Part shown: positions 1,386 to 61,163 of the stretch, in pieces | Numbering within the stretch: the first letter of the stretch is position 1 | Layout: each line of letters begins with the position of its first letter | From: Clostridia bacterium | Lineage (GTDB): Bacteria; Bacillota; Clostridia; Oscillospirales; Acutalibacteraceae | DNA length: 64,000 nt | Direction: 5' to 3' | Assembly: GCA_017621885.1 (NCBI GenBank) | Contig: JAGASD010000048.1 | Location: 7,013-71,012, forward strand | Program-made: the position numbers and the translations under genes | The notes under the pieces: generated by a model | The model's database searches: none | Told to the model about the DNA's origin: nothing | Seen by the model: only the letters and a program-made list of their open reading frames with translations

Positions 1386-2702
1386 TTAAAAAGATTTTGT
1401 TTTTAACGGCTTATGGAAAACCGGTTTCTTTTCGCCTGCGTTGAACATTTCTCTTGAAAGCAGATTTCGCATTTGGCAAAGAACCTTTTCATAATTCCCG
1501 TTTTTAACAAGGTTATTTTTCTCGCAAGGATCGTTTTCCAAATCGTAAAGATAATCGTCAAAATAGTGGGTTGCACGGGGCTTGTGCCAGCCTGAACCTA
1601 TTGCCTTAGCGGAGTATTTCCATTTTTTTGTGCGAACTGCTCTGCCGATATGAGATTCACTTATCTGCACAAAAACACAATCTCTTTCGGGAACATCATC
1701 TTTGTTAACGGGGAGAATGTTACCCGAGTAACTTTCGGGAACAGGGATTCCTGCAAGGTCAAGGATCGTGGGCGGAATGTCAATAAGGCTTGTAAGGCAA
1801 TCAAAATTTTTGCCTTTTGTTACCGCACCGCCGCCGAACACAAGGGGAGTGTGTATGCTCGACTCATGACAACTGCGTTTATATTCAGAATTACGGGTTT
1901 TAAAATGACAACCGTGGTCGCTTGTGTAAATGATAACAGTATTATCATATAGCCCTTTCTCTTTCAGAGCTTTTATAAGCTTACCCACATTTTCATCAAG
2001 CCTGTTTACTGCCGCTATGTAATCGGGGTATTCCTTTTCATAGTCACCTTTAAGGAACGATAAATCCTCGGGAATAGGATAATTGCGGTATTTTTCAACA
2101 GTTTCAATAGGCCCTTCAAAATGACCTCTGTCGTTCTGATGATGAGGCTCAAGCTGTGAAATGAACATAAAGAATGGTTTTTTGTTGTTGTGATTGTTTA
2201 TATATTCAACCGCAAAATCATTAATACAGTCTGCTCTGTAGCCTGTAAAATCAATTTTGTTACCATCTTCATCAAACACATATCCGTCATAGCCGTGTGA
2301 TGTGAATTCCAAAACATCCGCACCGCGCCAATATTTGTAACCGCCTTGTTTTTCTTTAGGAATTGCGGTCTTTTCACAATGTATCCCTTTCAGCGGAGAA
2401 CGGTCAGAGGCTAAGTGCCATTTGCCGATATATGCAGTATCATAGCCGTTTTCATTAAAATAATCGGCGAGAGTTTTTGTATCATTATCTAACGGGATAC
2501 CGTTCCGGTAGCATTTGTTTTGGGTAGCATATTTTCCCGTTTGCAAACAAGCCCTTGCAGGACCGCATACAGGCTGACAGGTAAAGGAATTTTCAAACAA
2601 CACACCTTCTTCACCCAATTCCCACACGTTAGGCATAAGCTCTTCTGTAAGTGTATCCCATCTTTGTTGATCGGAGAAATAAAAAATAATGTTTGGTTGC
2701 AT
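1386..2702 (-). CDS. Cys-type sulfatase (formylglycine-dependent arylsulfatase family)
   Basis: Motifs FYFSDQQRWD, the C-x-P-x-R signature in CQPVCGPARACLQTGKY, and TSDHGCHF. Start placed at ATG 2702 (MQPNIIFYF), which has GAGGTGA 5 nt upstream. The ORF track extends to 2741. Confidence 0.85.
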   Translation of the reverse strand: MQPNIIFYFSDQQRWDTLTEELMPNVWELGEEGVLFENSFTCQPVCGPARACLQTGKYATQNKCYRNGIPLDNDTKTLADYFNENGYDTAYIGKWHLASDRSPLKGIHCEKTAIPKEKQGGYKYWRGADVLEFTSHGYDGYVFDEDGNKIDFTGYRADCINDFAVEYINNHNNKKPFFMFISQLEPHHQNDRGHFEGPIETVEKYRNYPIPEDLSFLKGDYEKEYPDYIAAVNRLDENVGKLIKALKEKGLYDNTVIIYTSDHGCHFKTRNSEYKRSCHESSIHTPLVFGGGAVTKGKNFDCLTSLIDIPPTILDLAGIPVPESYSGNILPVNKDDVPERDCVFVQISESHIGRAVRTKKWKYSAKAIGSGWHKPRATHYFDDYLYDLENDPCEKNNLVKNGNYEKVLCQMRNLLSREMFNAGEKKPVFHKPLKTKSF

Positions 2703-2725
2703 AGTATCACCTCGGTATGTGTTAA

Positions 2726-2898
2726 ATGATATATCACTCACGCGATATGATATACGGCGTTGCCTTATGATATATTTTCACTTTGTGAAAATGTGATATG
2801 ATATCCGTTCCTTTATATGCCGAAGGCATATATCACCTGCGATAGCGGAAATCATATCAAAGATATATCACCCGTTCCGCAAGGAACGGATATCATTG
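2726..2898. repeat. Cluster of short GATATGATAT / ATATATCAC-type repeats in the sulfatase upstream region
   Basis: ATATATCAC occurs directly three times (about 2729, 2828, 2863). GATATGATAT occurs twice (about 2744, 2799) plus once inverted as ATCATATC (about 2852). Two small hairpins lie at 2813-2831 and 2872-2889. Confidence 0.6.
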
Positions 2899-2935
2899 AA
2901 AAAGACATCAATCGTAAAACGATTGATGTCTTTTT
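2899..2935. terminator. Bidirectional intrinsic terminator next to the tRNA
   Basis: GACATCAATCG-taaaa-CGATTGATGTC (2904-2930), flanked by an A-run and a T-run. Confidence 0.75.
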
Positions 2936-2936
2936 C

Positions 2937-3012
2937 TGGTCCGAGTGGCGAGACTTGAACTCACGGCCTCTTGACCCCCAGTCAAGCGCGCTACCAACTG
3001 CGCCACACCCGG
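2937..3012 (-). tRNA. tRNA-Pro (anticodon GGG), CCA encoded
   Basis: The reverse complement folds by hand as a 76-nt cloverleaf. Acceptor is CCGGGTG/CACTCGG, D arm GCGC-AGTTGGTA-GCGC, anticodon arm CTTGA-CTGGGGG-TCAAG and T arm GTGAG-TTCAAGT-CTCGC, ending ACCA. Confidence 0.9.
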
Positions 3013-3114
3013 ATAACGAATGATATAATATCATATCGTTACGCATTTTGCAAGTGTTTTTTTATATTTTTCCGGAAAAATTTCAAAAATGTTTTTTTGC
3101 ATATATTTATTGCA

Positions 3115-4788
3115 TTAAGCAGGTGTTATTTCATAAAAAACTACCGAATGAGGCTCAAGTGTAATGTTAAGTGTGATTTTACCATCTTTTGCAACCATTT
3201 GTGTTTCTGTTGGTGTTAATTTTGAGCATTCAGTGTATTTTGAATATAACTCGTCAAAATAAACATTTCTTGCATTTTCATCAGTAAGTGTAACCGTTGA
3301 ATCAATCTGCGGGTCTTCGGGTGACCAACTGAAGCAATCGTCTGTAATGTTATAAGTTTTTCTGTCTTCTAACCATTCATCAAAATAGTTGCAGTCATCG
3401 TTTATTACGTAAGCTTTAACGTTAACGTTTTTACCGTTGAATTGGGGGGCGTTTATTTCAAACGTCATTTCTGTTGATGTTTTGTAATCAACATCGTTTT
3501 TAAAATTATATGACATAACGTGGAGTGTGTTTGTTTTTTCGTTGAATGCAGAAACTGTATCAACATCCGAGCCTAAAATAACACCGGATTTTGTTTTGTC
3601 GGTTGTAGCGAGCTTTGCTCCCGTAAATTTTGCAGCATTTTGTGCTACGTGATAGCTTACCGTGGGGTTGCCGCTTAAAAATCCGCCCGAAAGATAAGAC
3701 CAGGCTGAAAAATATGCAATATCGTTATTGAACATCTGAGCAATAAGTCTTGCATCGTAAGCAGCTTGATATGTATATCCGCAGGTTCTGGTAAGTAATT
3801 CATCACTGTCTTTACCGCTGGTGTTGCCTACGAGAAGTCTTCCCTCGTCAACACCGTAAATAAGGTCGTTAAGTCCTACGCTTTCGGCTGTTTCGCGAAG
3901 ATATTCAACACTTTCGGGCAAGGTTTTACCCTCTGTGTATTCACCGGGGGCGTAGTCATAAAAGCTCGTTGCAAGGTAACAAACACGAGTGCCTTTTTTA
4001 CCTGTTTTGTAGTTTGTTCCCTCACCGCAGTGCTTGATAAATTCCGCTTCATCCCAAAGCCCTTCTGTTACTGTCATTGAGTGAGCACCGACAAACACAT
4101 TTTCACCTATTACTTCCTGCAATGCGGTTACGGAATAATCGTAAAGCTTGCAATAAGCCTCGCAGGATGCTTCGGGATCTTCGTTCTGTGCTAAGAACCA
4201 ATCTGCGTTTTCGTATTCGGTCATAACACCGAATCGCCATTTTAAAACTTCTTCTTTACCGAATTCTTTTACAAGAGCCGTTGCCATTGCGTGGATATAA
4301 TCATAATAAACATTATAATCATCAGGGGGATACGGGTTCATACCGAACCCTCTTTCCGTTGTAGCATCCTTTGTGAATTTAAGAGGGACACTACCGAGCT
4401 TTAACATAGGTTTTGCGCCTAAATTCAGCACACCGCGACAGTTGTCGATAAGCAACGTGAAATCGTAATCATTAAGGACGGTTTTATTGTTAGGATCTTT
4501 AAAGAGATCACGCGCCTCGGTACCGCCGGTACATTGCATAAACTGAACGTATTCAACAAATTCGAAAATATTATTTTCTTTGTTGACTGTTGCATCCTTG
4601 AAGGGGTTGCCTTCAATTGACCAGATATTAACGTTGTTTACAACGTTATGCAATGTATTGCCTGTTGCAGAGGTATCAATGCTGAAGGTGTATTTGTTAA
4701 AAATACCGCTGGCAATAAGACCGAAAGCACCACCGAATATAACGGCGATAACAAGTACAACACAAATAACTTTTTTCAATGTCTTCAT
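3115..4788 (-). CDS. Membrane-anchored or secreted glycoside-hydrolase-like protein (clan GH-A/GH39-like TIM barrel, tentative)
   Basis: 557 aa with an N-terminal hydrophobic anchor. WRFGVMTEYEN resembles the GH39 acid/base segment. The C-terminal part looks like a beta-sandwich. Family call is tentative. Confidence 0.5.
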   Translation of the reverse strand: MKTLKKVICVVLVIAVIFGGAFGLIASGIFNKYTFSIDTSATGNTLHNVVNNVNIWSIEGNPFKDATVNKENNIFEFVEYVQFMQCTGGTEARDLFKDPNNKTVLNDYDFTLLIDNCRGVLNLGAKPMLKLGSVPLKFTKDATTERGFGMNPYPPDDYNVYYDYIHAMATALVKEFGKEEVLKWRFGVMTEYENADWFLAQNEDPEASCEAYCKLYDYSVTALQEVIGENVFVGAHSMTVTEGLWDEAEFIKHCGEGTNYKTGKKGTRVCYLATSFYDYAPGEYTEGKTLPESVEYLRETAESVGLNDLIYGVDEGRLLVGNTSGKDSDELLTRTCGYTYQAAYDARLIAQMFNNDIAYFSAWSYLSGGFLSGNPTVSYHVAQNAAKFTGAKLATTDKTKSGVILGSDVDTVSAFNEKTNTLHVMSYNFKNDVDYKTSTEMTFEINAPQFNGKNVNVKAYVINDDCNYFDEWLEDRKTYNITDDCFSWSPEDPQIDSTVTLTDENARNVYFDELYSKYTECSKLTPTETQMVAKDGKITLNITLEPHSVVFYEITPA

Positions 4789-57488: not shown

Positions 57489-57635
57489 ATGGGCTTTGTA
57501 TTTGATTTTGATAAGTTTAAAAAAGGTAAACCAATGGACTATTCTGACTTTATCGAGGATGATTTTGATTATGAATATGCAGAAGAGTTTATATTTGAAG
57601 ATGAATACGGCGATGTGGACAGATATGATACTTGA
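57489..57635 (+). CDS. Highly acidic 48-aa protein of unknown function
   Basis: GGAGG lies 8 nt upstream of ATG 57489. ...DYSDFIEDDFDYEYAEEFIFEDEYGDVDRYDT. A terminator follows. Confidence 0.4.
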   Translation: MGFVFDFDKFKKGKPMDYSDFIEDDFDYEYAEEFIFEDEYGDVDRYDT

Positions 57636-57639
57636 GTTT

Positions 57640-57675
57640 AGCGGTGAGTTCTTTTCGGAATTCACCGCTATTTTT
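57640..57675 (+). terminator. Intrinsic terminator
   Basis: AGCGGTGA...TCACCGCT followed by ATTTTT. Confidence 0.75.
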
Positions 57676-57777
57676 GATTTGTGTAGAATAGTCAACTATC
57701 GCAGGCGCTGAGGTTGTCTGAACCGCCAAAGTGATTAATAAAATCCTCTTGGTTGAGCGAAAAAAGTGGATGTTGTT

Positions 57778-58179
57778 TCTACCTCTCTGGCTTAAGAGAG
57801 GGGGACCATTGCGCAATCAATTGTTGTTTGGATAAGCTTAAATCCGGGATGTTAATTAAATGGTAAAATTAAGTTGGGGCGAATGGTGGAGAGTTCCCGA
57901 TGCTTCAGCATCGTGGAAGCACTGCTTCCATTGACATAAATTTTATATTATTGATATTTTATTTGTGAGTAAAAATTTATTGTTCTTATTGTTTTATCAA
58001 TGTGGTGAGTTTACTACAATTGAATCTTACGATTCAACGACACGCCTATGGTCGTGTCGGGAACTCTCCACCGCTCCGTCAGACTATATTTTCAAATAAA
58101 ATTCAAGGCACGCTTGCTACAAATTTTAAAAGAAAAAATATTATAAGGCGGTCCCCCTCTCTTAAGCCAGAGAGGTAGA
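57778..58179. other. 402-bp non-coding element bounded by perfect 30-nt inverted repeats, with a second concentric inverted pair
   Basis: TCTACCTCTCTGGCTTAAGAGAGGGGGACC (57778-57807) is the exact reverse complement of 58150-58179. GGTGGAGAGTTCCCGA (57885-57900) is the exact reverse complement of 58057-58072. Both pairs are centred on 57978.5. No ORF of 60 aa or more. Its nature is unresolved. Confidence 0.5.
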
Positions 58180-58309
58180 TAAAAACGCTACTATATCCAT
58201 TATAAATAAATTTTAGAACATTAACTACTATAGGGAGCAGGATAAGCCTAAACCCTACGATGGGATGTTGCTCTAACAAAACAATGCGTAGAAAAAACTA
58301 CCACAGTAA

Positions 58310-58356
58310 GGTACGCATCTATGCGTACCGCGAGAGGTAACGTACCTCTTTTAAAT
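58310..58356 (+). terminator. Tandem hairpins, the second terminator-like
   Basis: GGTACGCA-tcta-TGCGTACC, then AGAGGTA-acg-TACCTCT followed by TTTAAAT. The T-run is weak. Confidence 0.35.
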
Positions 58357-58536
58357 CTGTTGTTTAGGAGAATTTATTTTCCTTACACGCGGGACGGATG
58401 GATCCGTCTCTTACGATGGTGTATCGTTCTGCAATAGTAATTTGCTCAACCGTAGGGTGTGTATTTCCGAGAATGGAAAAATCTTTGCCGAAATATACTG
58501 CATTTTGTTAACAATTCTTTACTTTTTATTAAATCA

Positions 58537-58565
58537 TTGAATTGTGAGAAAATTTATCGTATAAT
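58537..58565 (+). promoter_or_regulatory. Sigma-A-like promoter for mcsA-mcsB
   Basis: TTGAAT, 17-nt spacer, TATAAT. No GGTCAAA-type CtsR direct repeat nearby. Confidence 0.55.
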
Positions 58566-58601: not shown

Positions 58602-59096
58602 TTGATTTGTCAGAATTGTAATAAAAATGAAGCCAATATGCATATGAAACGTATTATTAACGGCAGAGCAGGGGAGGTTCACCTTTGCTCCGACTGTGCG
58701 CGTTCTCTCGGTTACGGCGAGGCTTTTTCCGGCTTCGGACTCGGTTTGGGTGATTTTTTCGGTGAGCTTCTTTCAAAAGAGTCAAAATCAAATACGGGTC
58801 TTGTTTGTCCCGGTTGCGGAAAAACTTTTGATGAGGTTTTGTCTGACGGCAAAATGGGCTGTGCTGAGTGTTACGGCGTTTATTATGATAAATTGCTTCC
58901 GTCGCTCAGACGTATACACGGCAAGTCAACTTATGTGGGTTCAAGACCTGTATCGCATCAGGAGTCCGATGTATCCGAAGCTTTGAATCAGCTTAAATCA
59001 AAGCTTGCCGTTGCAATTGAAGCTCAGAATTTTGAACTTGCGGCACAGCTTCGTGATGAGATAAATAATATACTTAGCAAAAGGGGGGATAACTGA
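58602..59096 (+). CDS. mcsA: McsA-like protein (Zn-finger CxxC pairs plus UVR motif), activator of McsB
   Basis: TTG start 6 nt after GAGGTG. CQNC...CSDC and CPGC...CAEC pairs, and a C-terminal UVR-like FELAAQLRDEINNI. Confidence 0.75.
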   Translation: MICQNCNKNEANMHMKRIINGRAGEVHLCSDCARSLGYGEAFSGFGLGLGDFFGELLSKESKSNTGLVCPGCGKTFDEVLSDGKMGCAECYGVYYDKLLPSLRRIHGKSTYVGSRPVSHQESDVSEALNQLKSKLAVAIEAQNFELAAQLRDEINNILSKRGDN

Positions 59097-60106
59097 TGTC
59101 TGCAAAATGGTACCTGGGCACGGGTGCACAGAACGATGTTGTTATAAACACAAGTGTTCATCTTGCCCGCAATATCAGAGAATTCCCTTTTCCTGCGAGA
59201 CTTACATTACCCGAAAAATTGAATGTTAATTCTGTTATTAAAAATGCATCGGATTCTATTGGTGATTATTCGTTTAATTATTATGAAATGAAAACACTTT
59301 CTCAGGCAGAGGTTGTTTCGCTTGCAGAGCGTCACCTTGTCAGTCCCGAGTTTGCATCTTCCCGTGACGGCAGAGCATTGCTTTTAACAGAGGATGAAGC
59401 TGTAAGCATTATGCTCAATGAAGAAGACCATATCAGGTGTCAGGTTATGTACGCCGGTTTTGCACTTGATGAGGCATACAGAACAGCAAGTAACATTGAC
59501 CGCAAGTTATCCCAAAAGCTCGAATTTGCTTTTGATGATAAATTAGGCTATCTTACCCAAGACCCTACAGCACTCGGTACAGGTATGAAGGCATCGGTTG
59601 TTTTACATCTTCCTGCTCTTGTTACAACCTCGCAGATTACAAAGCTCATTACAACTGTTTCAAAATTAGGCCTTTCTCTTCGGGGTTCCTATGGCGAAGG
59701 TGCCGCAGCAAAAGGGGATATGTTCCGTCTGAGCAATACTATTACGTTAGGTATTTCCGAAAAAGCGGCTATAGAAAACCTTAAATCAATTGCACTTCAA
59801 ATAGCTGCACAGGAAAGAGCCGCCCGTGAGGAGATTTTCAAAGCACCCGTAACTGAAGACAGAATTTTCCGTGCATACGGTGTGTTAAAATACGCAAGAC
59901 TTCTTGATACCAATGAATTTATGGATTTGATTTCCTTAGTCAGATTAGGCGCGGTAAAGGGCTTAATCAAAATGGAATGTGCGCAGATAGAGGCACTTAT
60001 GATTCATATGCAGCCTGCAACCATTTCCCTTTCCGTTGACAGACCCCTTGACAGAGCTGAAAGAGATAAATTGCGCGCAATGCTTGTAAGAAAAGCCCTT
60101 ATTTGA
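59096..60106 (+). CDS. mcsB: Protein arginine kinase (ATP:guanido phosphotransferase)
   Basis: RLARNIREFPFP, NEEDHIRCQ and DPTALGTGMKASV phosphagen-kinase motifs. TGATG overlap with mcsA. Confidence 0.9.
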   Translation: MSAKWYLGTGAQNDVVINTSVHLARNIREFPFPARLTLPEKLNVNSVIKNASDSIGDYSFNYYEMKTLSQAEVVSLAERHLVSPEFASSRDGRALLLTEDEAVSIMLNEEDHIRCQVMYAGFALDEAYRTASNIDRKLSQKLEFAFDDKLGYLTQDPTALGTGMKASVVLHLPALVTTSQITKLITTVSKLGLSLRGSYGEGAAAKGDMFRLSNTITLGISEKAAIENLKSIALQIAAQERAAREEIFKAPVTEDRIFRAYGVLKYARLLDTNEFMDLISLVRLGAVKGLIKMECAQIEALMIHMQPATISLSVDRPLDRAERDKLRAMLVRKALI

Positions 60107-60130
60107 ATATTTTTACAATATATGATGAAA

Positions 60131-60161
60131 ATAACTGTTGAGGATGCTCAGCAGTTATTTT
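60131..60161 (+). terminator. Intrinsic terminator after mcsB
   Basis: TAACTGTTGAG-gatg-CTCAGCAGTTA followed by TTTTT. Confidence 0.75.
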
Positions 60162-60230
60162 TATATTGAAATATGTAAATTGGTGTGATATTATACCATT
60201 TGTTTATAAAATCATTTTACAGAGGTAGTT

Positions 60231-61163
60231 ATGTCAAAAATAAAAAAATCAAGAACACTATTTTCTTCCTTTTTATTGATTGTTGCCGCTTTTATATGGG
60301 GAACAACCTTTGTGGCGCAAAAAGAGGGTCTTGAACAAATCGGTAATTTTACGTTCCTTGCTTTGCGCTCATATCTTGCAGTTGTGTTTTTGACTCCCGT
60401 TTCACTTTTTATTTACAAAAATAATAAAAAACATATAGGCGACGGCGAACACGGAGAACACAAAACCTTTATTTCCAAAAAACTTCTTTTAGGCGGAGTG
60501 CTTTGCGGAACGTCCGTTTGTATGGCATCTCTTGTACAGCAATATGGCATTATGTACTCGGGAGTGGGTAAATCAGGCTTTTTAACAACCTTATATATAC
60601 TTATAGTGCCTATTTTGGGAGTGTTTTTAAAACGTAAAATCAAGCCGATTTTGTGGGTGTGTGTTGTTATTGCAACCTGCGGTATGTACTTTTTGTGCGT
60701 TACCGAAACGGGCGGAATAACCATAGGCGATTTTTTACTCATTATGTGCGCATTCCTCTTTGCGGTGCAAATAATGATTGTCGACCATTTTGTTAAGACG
60801 CTTGACGGAGTAAGGCTTTCTCTTGTTCAGTTTGCGGTTGCGGCTGTAATTTCAACAATCGGTATGTTCCTTTTTGAAGAGGTTGACCCCGTGGCAATCG
60901 GTGATGCATGGTTCTCCATTTTTTATGCTGGCGTTCTTTCCTCGGGTATTGCCTTCACATTGCAGGTTGTGGCGCAGAAAAACCTTAATCCCACAGTTGC
61001 AAGTCTTATTATGAGTCTTGAATCTGTTTTTGCCGCGTTGGCAGGTGCATTTTTCGGAGAACGTCTTACACCAAACGAAATTGTTGGTTGCGCTCTTGTG
61101 TTTGCTGCAATAATTCTTGCGCAGGTTCCTGTTGAGAATTTGTTAAAAAAAAGAGTTGAATAA
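60231..61163 (+). CDS. DMT superfamily transporter (EamA family)
   Basis: 10-TM layout with duplicated EamA halves. 310 aa. Confidence 0.8.
   Translation: MSKIKKSRTLFSSFLLIVAAFIWGTTFVAQKEGLEQIGNFTFLALRSYLAVVFLTPVSLFIYKNNKKHIGDGEHGEHKTFISKKLLLGGVLCGTSVCMASLVQQYGIMYSGVGKSGFLTTLYILIVPILGVFLKRKIKPILWVCVVIATCGMYFLCVTETGGITIGDFLLIMCAFLFAVQIMIVDHFVKTLDGVRLSLVQFAVAAVISTIGMFLFEEVDPVAIGDAWFSIFYAGVLSSGIAFTLQVVAQKNLNPTVASLIMSLESVFAALAGAFFGERLTPNEIVGCALVFAAIILAQVPVENLLKKRVE

Follow-up and report, generated by a model that had tools for sequence, protein, structure and literature searches.

The window, a stretch of 64,000 nucleotides from a Clostridia bacterium of the family Acutalibacteraceae (contig JAGASD010000048.1), contains the genes mcsA (58602–59096) and mcsB, and the element described here lies upstream of them within a noncoding gap of ∼920 bp. 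The gap is bordered on its other side by a 48-aa, very acidic ORF (57490–57635, MGFVFDFDKFKKGKP...), which has a ribosome-binding site and its own terminator (57639–57670). This ORF gave no Pfam match, and it is conserved upstream of mcsA in four of the related loci that were compared (L005, L007, L012 and L013; such loci carry L numbers throughout). The mcsA–mcsB pair (58602–61163) has neither ctsR nor clpC beside it, and after it come an EamA transporter and an ECF sigma/anti-sigma pair; no CtsR-box-like direct repeat was noticed by eye upstream of it.

The element is ∼440 bp long, noncoding, and has inverted repeats of 30–35 nt at its ends. Its geometry is as described in the initial annotation. 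The outer arms (57778–57807 and 58150–58179) form a perfect, fully complementary inverted repeat of 30 nt, which find_repeats extends to 35 nt at 94% (57773–57807 and 58150–58184), with 342 nt between the arms; a 29-mer from the arm occurs exactly twice in the 64 kb, against no occurrence expected from 100 shuffles. The inner pair (57885–57900 and 58057–58072) is perfect over 16 nt, and the GGGGC/GCTCC extension proposed for it, with one G–T pair allowed, is present in the sequence. Both pairs have the midpoint 57978.5, the 77 nt that separate outer from inner arm on each side (57808–57884 and 58073–58149) are mutually unrelated, and each outer arm is itself self-complementary, forming a hairpin (P1, Table 1). 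The longest ORFs inside the element are of 58 aa, so that the reported lack of ORFs of 60 aa or more holds for the element, to which the check was confined, and the reported lack of a recombinase or transposase holds for the Pfam domains recorded on genes within ∼10 kb on either side.

Table 1. Positions of the element, its parts and adjacent features in the window
Feature	Positions	Strand	Evidence or remark
Whole foldback element (convergent doublet)	57758–58197	.	BLAST against related loci; five-way alignment for the limits of similarity; includes leaders of ∼20–25 nt outside the P1 hairpins
Module U1, alpha-type half	57766–57949	+	Covariance model R1, 162.5 bits, E 8.5e-39, full length 1–186; nhmmer E 1.5e-39
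Module U2, beta-type half	58001–58191	−	Covariance model R1, 177.9 bits, E 1.1e-42
P1 hairpin of U1 (CCTCTCT-GGCTTA-AGAGAGG)	57782–57801	+	P1 with the following GGGGGACC is the outer left arm
P1 hairpin of U2	58156–58175	−	Part of the outer right arm
P2 domain of U1	57805–57887	+	Predicted helix ACCATTG (57805–57811) / CGAATGGT (57880–57887) closing the variable region; RNAalifold
P2 domain of U2	58070–58152	−	Predicted minus-strand helix ACCGCCT / GGAGCGGT around a different variable region
Conserved box GGTGGAGAGTTCCCGA of U1 (inner left arm)	57885–57900	+	
Same conserved box in U2 (inner right arm)	58057–58072	−	
P3 (57899–57912) and P4 (57914–57930) hairpins of U1	57899–57930	+	
P4 (58020–58037) and P3 (58038–58059) hairpins of U2	58020–58059	−	
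AT-rich centre	57950–58000	.	DUF559 ORF at the equivalent position in L034, L056 and L026; second doublet there in L059
Separate repeated module beside the element, outside the doublet	58300–58430	.	Matches of 77–83% in L016, L019, L027, L032, L033, L038, L039 and L047
mcsA promoter, TTGAAT-17-TATAAT	58537–58565	+	Outside the element; promoter scan

The element consists of a ∼186-nt module that is present twice in convergent orientation, as U1 on the plus strand and as U2 on the minus strand. These are the only sequences in the window that score with covariance model R1, so that the 64 kb contain a single doublet. The concentric perfect repeats arise because the near-invariant blocks of the family, P1 with the adjoining GGGGGACC and the box GGTGGAGAGTTCCCGA, are present in two convergent copies, and the 77 nt that fail to pair with each other are the variable P2 domain, which is closed by a covarying helix of its own. 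The hairpins listed earlier for the core are real, and are the P3 and P4 helices of U1 and U2. Both strands fold much more stably than shuffled sequences (z = −14 and −12), as would be expected for any long inverted repeat.

On its own strand, each ∼186-nt module has four predicted helices, which might form in RNA or in single-stranded DNA. P1, P3 and P4 are hairpins, P2 is a long-range helix that closes a variable domain of ∼67 nt, and near-invariant boxes (GGGGGACC and GGTGGAGAGTTCCC) lie between the helices. The sequence GGTGG is invariant in 47 cores, and the remainder of the box GGTGGAGAGTTCCCGA is nearly invariant in A-type halves. The 77 nt between the arms are conserved in length and fall into several sequence types, the window copy having the alpha type on the left and the beta type on the right. 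In the doublets of L014 and L023 the two halves differ in P1 sequence, and hence it is not the complementarity between halves that is conserved.

RNAalifold predicted P1, P2 and P3, and P4 was added by hand, its register being shifted by differences in loop length. These differences also led us to drop a fixed-column covariation test on a MAFFT alignment for P1 and P4 and to use a covariance-model alignment instead. Model R1 was built from 16 halves, and the pairs were counted on the model-based alignment of 80 modules. Fitting this alignment to the model biases the counts toward the structure, but the margins are wide: pairing is seen in 95% of cells, whereas controls with slid positions reach only 42–65%, and the compensatory stem changes, for which a comparative alignment had been suggested, are found in 21 of the 27 pairs (211 cells), the observed values being reached by none of 500 shuffles. 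In P1, one pair is UA in 43 modules and CG in 32; the counts for P2 include GC 48, AU 18 and GU 8 at one pair and CG 57 and UA 15 at another; and compensatory changes are seen at each of the six pairs in P3 and the seven in P4. One position holds a conserved G–U pair (UG in 54 sequences), which points to a strand-specific fold. As modelled, the four helices of each module covary strongly on the module's own strand, the predicted fold being on the plus strand for U1 and on the minus strand for U2.

The module also occurs in other forms. Minimal tandem modules at L017 (3993–4132) and L038 (1734–1874) have the P2 domain shrunk to a short hairpin, ACCGC-GTA-GCGGT, and the ∼67-nt variable domain is therefore optional. 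At L042 (1777–2165) and L026 (∼1080–1250) there are tandem units of ∼194 nt with the same leader and P1 and a different, GC-rich body (GGGCAAGGAACACGACCGCGCCCGGTGGGCGATGCAGGG...). The shared leader and hairpin suggest that P1 may serve as a common head for several module types.

The window copy is one of many. A search with the pattern GGGGACCGCCTT-N50-80-GGAGCGGTGG, taken from blocks common to the right half of the window element (minus strand), L007 and L012, matched 36 loci in the GTDB species representatives, a single genome having as many as 8. Thirty-four of these belong to Acutalibacteraceae, Oscillospiraceae or Clostridia MAGs from animal guts; the other two, in GC-rich actinobacteria, were rejected as chance matches. 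All the units found in this way lie between genes, except that a few partly overlap mechanically called ORFs, and they show no consistent orientation or distance relative to the neighbouring genes, which indicates that they are not leaders of particular genes. The BLAST search for further copies that the initial annotation had called for showed further copies of the entire doublet in related genomes, at unrelated loci. Positions 57760–58192 align end to end with L016 (78%, 444 nt), L052 (78%), L050 (74%), and L035 and L042 (67–69%), the last two being different contigs of one MAG. The flanks of these five doublets are mutually unrelated, so that five or more unrelated contexts are represented. 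An arm scan of metagenome contigs gave nine further loci, mostly at contig ends, two of which have full doublets (L052 and L050).

With model R1, we found 80 modules in 394 kb. The 38 high-scoring halves include 16 convergent pairs, and the high-scoring halves outside pairs are mostly at contig ends. The end-to-end alignments show the doublet as a whole to be what is repeated. Doublets are kept at orthologous loci across species in two cases (L014/L023 and L016/L034). They can also be nested, as in L059 (also L060), where the halves run + + − − and a doublet at 359–775 lies within the centre of another at 158–1026. At the ends of 13 doublets, no target-site duplications were evident; these ends fade into A/T runs, in many cases border on other modules of the repeat set, and do not allow sharp termini to be defined.

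The family matched nothing in the collections that we searched. Rfam has no family at the element (3 kb, nothing below E 0.5), and in gathering mode it returned only one tRNA for the window and only an unrelated FMN riboswitch for 16 related loci; the large-RNA families put forward for checking (ROOL, GOLLD, raiA, HEARO and OLE) are among those with no match near the element or in the window. The known ribozyme, riboswitch and T-box classes were also considered from the conserved boxes and set aside, as none fits by eye and Rfam, whose models cover these classes, gave no match. The 961-bp intergenic region had no BLAST match in plasmid and phage collections, and a module scan of IMG/VR gave 0 matches. 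No description of the repeat was found in Rfam or in the searchable literature. We therefore treat the family as previously undescribed, and it is best filed with the bacterial interspersed foldback repeats, from which it is distinguished by the size and covariation of its module and by having DUF559, not a transposase or RAYT, as its partner.

Members of this family come and go in the intergenic region upstream of mcsA, as seen in related contigs found by anchoring on McsA and McsB. In L005 (McsA 88% identical), only 135 bp separate the small ORF from mcsA; the sequence corresponding to 57672–58500 is absent, and there is no element. L006 (83% identical) retains both outer leaders and a single P1 hairpin, and is equivalent to the window without 57789–58162: its positions 1–60 are window 57757–57788 joined to 58163–58200, with a 7-nt direct repeat, CCTCTCT, at the edges. 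This precise loss between the two P1 stems could reflect slippage across the foldback, or it could be an excision footprint. L006 is also without ∼58320–58488. L004, the flanks of which are 99.4% identical, diverges directly after the small ORF; by eye, the divergent stretch resembles a degenerate relative of the module, one missed by both the profile search and the covariance model. L007, L012 and L013 have single related modules on the plus strand at the equivalent place. Several assemblies break in or beside the element, and contigs of the same strain begin or end at window positions 58038, 58283 and 58311. Throughout, the mcsA promoter is conserved (L005, L006, L007, L011 and L012, including relatives without the element), and the copy at this locus is probably a passenger, mcsA–mcsB keeping their own conserved promoter downstream of it.

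Other repeated sequences lie close by. The module at 58300–58430, which is unrelated to that of the doublet, contains a palindrome, GTACGCATCTATGCGTAC, and a terminator-like hairpin near 58335–58356; at the eight other loci where it occurs it is usually beside B-type modules, in either orientation. Many B-type modules are preceded by a GGA-rich module (AGGAATTAGGAATGAGGAATTAGGAAT) and then a short hairpin with GATTATAAT, for example at L007 5590–5650, L012 3620–3680, L013 3120–3180 and, on the minus strand, L042 ∼2230–2290. In sequence, the repeated GGA motifs resemble CsrA-binding RNAs. At L011, a gene for a TraG/VirD4-type coupling protein (T4SS-DNA_transf, 2354–3844) lies directly upstream of mcsA, so that the intergenic region there also borders a conjugative element.

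The repeat family is associated with a nuclease gene. In L026, L034 and L056, a 132-aa ORF between the halves encodes a DUF559 protein (PF04480, Pfam E 2e-29; Vsr-like PD-(D/E)XK), and the three proteins are 90–92% identical. The outer arms of these copies are separated by ∼700–715 nt, compared with 324–342 nt in most ORF-less copies, and one locus is represented in two species by an ORF-less form (L016, 391 nt) and an ORF-bearing form (L034, 768 nt). The half that is sense-upstream of the ORF is of the beta type, like U2 of the window, and the other half is antisense-downstream. DUF559 homologues at 75–80% identity adjoin modules or sit within ∼475 nt of them: in L069 there is a module on the sense-upstream side alone, in L065 and L066 on the antisense-downstream side alone, and in L059–L064 the DUF559 gene is 200–475 nt from a doublet (475 nt for the nested doublets of L059). 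The DUF559 proteins form ∼70 clusters at ≥89% identity, nearly all on contigs of 0.5–3 kb, the kind of fragment that a gene lying within a repeat would be expected to yield. Viral contigs contain relatives of only 39–45% identity, with no modules near them. Among solved structures, the closest are 3hrl (E 1e-14) and that of I-Bth0305I, a homing endonuclease (3r3p, E 0.01); Vsr, DUF559 and I-Bth0305I have been placed in one clade (PMC3424549). A tblastn search of the window with the DUF559 protein found no gene, inspection of the ORF-less centres by eye gave no convincing ORF remnants, and literature searches on DUF559, on MITEs with Ruminococcaceae and on Vsr with REP found nothing relevant.

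In sum, the element belongs to a dispersed family of inverted, structured doublets, among which it is one of the copies with no ORF. We put at roughly 60% the probability that it is a foldback repeat like a REPIN or MITE, one copy of a family dispersed in Acutalibacteraceae and related Oscillospirales and possibly served in trans by the DUF559 nuclease. Of the explanations offered in the initial annotation, a non-autonomous foldback or MITE-type element comes closest to the evidence: the doublet is found at unrelated loci, is absent from a close relative and has ORF-bearing versions, although neither a target-site duplication nor a known transposase was found. In such a scheme the nuclease would recognise the conserved hairpin and boxes, and would act in trans on ORF-less doublets such as the window copy. 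By analogy with REPINs and RAYTs, or with MITEs and their parent elements, the doublet could then spread via break-induced copying or by excision and insertion. Several points tell against this reading. Copies that are only 67–78% identical are too divergent to be typical of an active MITE, retention at orthologous loci fits a selected function as well, and the ends show no duplication and no sharp boundary. DUF559 is no known transposase, and its activity here is a candidate one; the arrangement of the ORF varies, with modules on both sides, on one side or merely adjacent; and the window itself has no DUF559 gene.

A close counterpart in layout is the REPIN, in which a doublet of inverted repeats is the replicative unit, associated with RAYT transposases (Bertels & Rainey 2011, PMC3116915). 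As with REPINs, the doublets can fold into a long hairpin, the copies are extragenic, dispersed and long-lived, and a small nuclease-type gene is flanked by repeats and absent from most copies; inverted doublets also predominate here, as the 16 convergent pairs attest. A REP unit, however, is a palindrome of 20–40 nt with a GTAG or CGTC tag (PMC3733652), whereas our modules are of ∼186 nt, with four covarying helices, a variable domain and no such tag. The linked gene also differs, being a PD-(D/E)XK nuclease of DUF559 (PF04480) rather than an HUH/Y1 RAYT, and no transposition intermediate has been observed for the present family.

Foldback elements and MITEs, among them the modular repeats of the Correia, RUP and BOX types, are short and noncoding, have terminal inverted repeats and occur in multiple intergenic copies. 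The doublets share all of these properties, and like the modular repeats they cluster or nest with related modules. They differ in that no target-site duplication was found, in that no parent IS with a recognised transposase is apparent, the ORF-bearing relatives encoding only the 132-aa DUF559 nuclease, and in that the copies are far more divergent. The inverted repeats of MITEs are normally without compensatory evolution, in contrast to the internal structure of the modules described here. Comparison can also be made with homing endonucleases of the Vsr-like fold, free-standing or carried by introns, such as I-Bth0305I, since the ORF of the longer copies falls in the same DUF559/Vsr clade and, at an orthologous site, occurs in L034 but not in L016, with homologous flanks that could template repair. 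There is, however, no intron or intein here, the ORF-less centres are AT-rich and poorly conserved with no conserved recognition site evident, and the ORF-less host sequence is itself a multi-copy repeat.

A more specific proposal, which we hold only tentatively, is that the modules and DUF559 together are a new kind of nuclease-driven element, in which a Vsr-like PD-(D/E)XK nuclease, and not a transposase or HUH enzyme, would recognise the ∼186-nt structured module as single-stranded DNA or RNA and propagate the inverted doublets. In a bolder version, the conserved scaffold with its variable P2 domain may be an RNA partner that regulates or directs the nuclease.

A structured RNA had been proposed from the outset, and its strongly covarying secondary structure is indeed present; it belongs, however, to each ∼186-nt half on that half's own strand, and has no Rfam match. 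Nothing favours a single plus-strand RNA of ∼600 nt, given that U1 folds on the plus strand and U2 on the minus strand and that the hairpin near 58356, taken as its end, is in a different repeated module. The halves could instead be convergent genes for a new family of structured small RNAs of ∼190 nt, the scattered paralogues being kept by selection for RNA function. The inverted repeat in the DNA would then be a by-product and mobility not the point, and the RNAs might regulate or partner the DUF559 nuclease. The strong covariation in four helices with conserved G–U pairs, on each half's own strand, is what such genes would show, as are a fold kept while the copies diverged to 67–78% identity, doublets retained at orthologous loci in different species, and an architecture of conserved scaffold plus variable domain. 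Yet the leaders of the aligned copies share no −35/−10, no T-run terminator follows P4, and the units have no orientation bias relative to neighbouring genes. The lack of an Rfam match, the variation in presence and absence, the nesting and the repeat-like assembly breaks at the element also count against RNA genes, which we consider an unlikely explanation on their own; the small-RNA-gene reading could coexist with mobility.

That the element is a decaying relic, an old inverted duplication or dead repeat that is now inactive and functionless and persists only because the intergenic region tolerates it, is improbable. The divergence of the copies, the missing target-site duplications, the lack of a nuclease gene in the window and the patchwork of repeat modules in the region would all be expected of a relic, but under neutral decay the 95% pairing, with 21 of the 27 pairs showing compensatory changes, would be lost, as would the identity between the two halves of the 30-nt and 16-nt blocks on either side of an unrelated 77 nt.

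The initial annotation also raised an invertible promoter, in which a recombinase acting in trans would flip the 342 bp between the 30-nt arms and turn an internal promoter toward or away from mcsA–mcsB. As in known invertons, inverted repeats of suitable length flank a few hundred base pairs upstream of an operon, and the AT-rich core has a promoter-like TTGACA-18-TATTTT (57931–57960, recovered by our promoter scan). The P1 hairpin with its flanks can be read as 11-6-11, resembling a tyrosine-recombinase site, and assemblies break inside the region. The internal −35/−10 is not conserved, however: the TTGACA of the window sits on the conserved 3′ tail of U1, where other copies have TTGAAA, TAGACA, TTTACA, TTGTTT or ATGGAA, and the 8 promoter-like sites found in the region are no excess over the 6.0 expected from shuffles. 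The operon has its own promoter outside the element (Table 1), present also where the element is missing, and no recombinase domain is recorded in the ∼10 kb on either side. The arms consist of blocks that are conserved across the whole family and found at dozens of unrelated loci with no consistent downstream gene, and the two arms differ from each other in L014 and L023. No second orientation was seen, L003, the only other assembly that spans the element, having the same one; and in the five copies compared by eye, the alpha and the beta body each seem to retain their own type of leader. Inversion is therefore hardly tenable as an explanation. Separately, we considered the 11-6-11 palindrome as an Xer/dif-like site of integration or excision and rejected it: the central regions are inverted, not direct, so that simple integration does not give the structure.

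Bacterial genomes are shaped by interspersed structured repeats, among them REP/REPIN, BOX and Correia, and only for very few such repeats has the responsible enzyme been identified. In the present family, from uncultured Clostridia of animal gut and rumen, the covarying module is unusually large and is paired with a DUF559 nuclease. The family interrupts the assembly of metagenomes in these taxa, and there is a risk of taking its perfect inverted repeats for invertons. DUF559 is a very common domain to which, to our knowledge, no function has been assigned; if the link is functional, DUF559 would gain a role, and a new class of enzyme would join the few known mobilisers of repeats.
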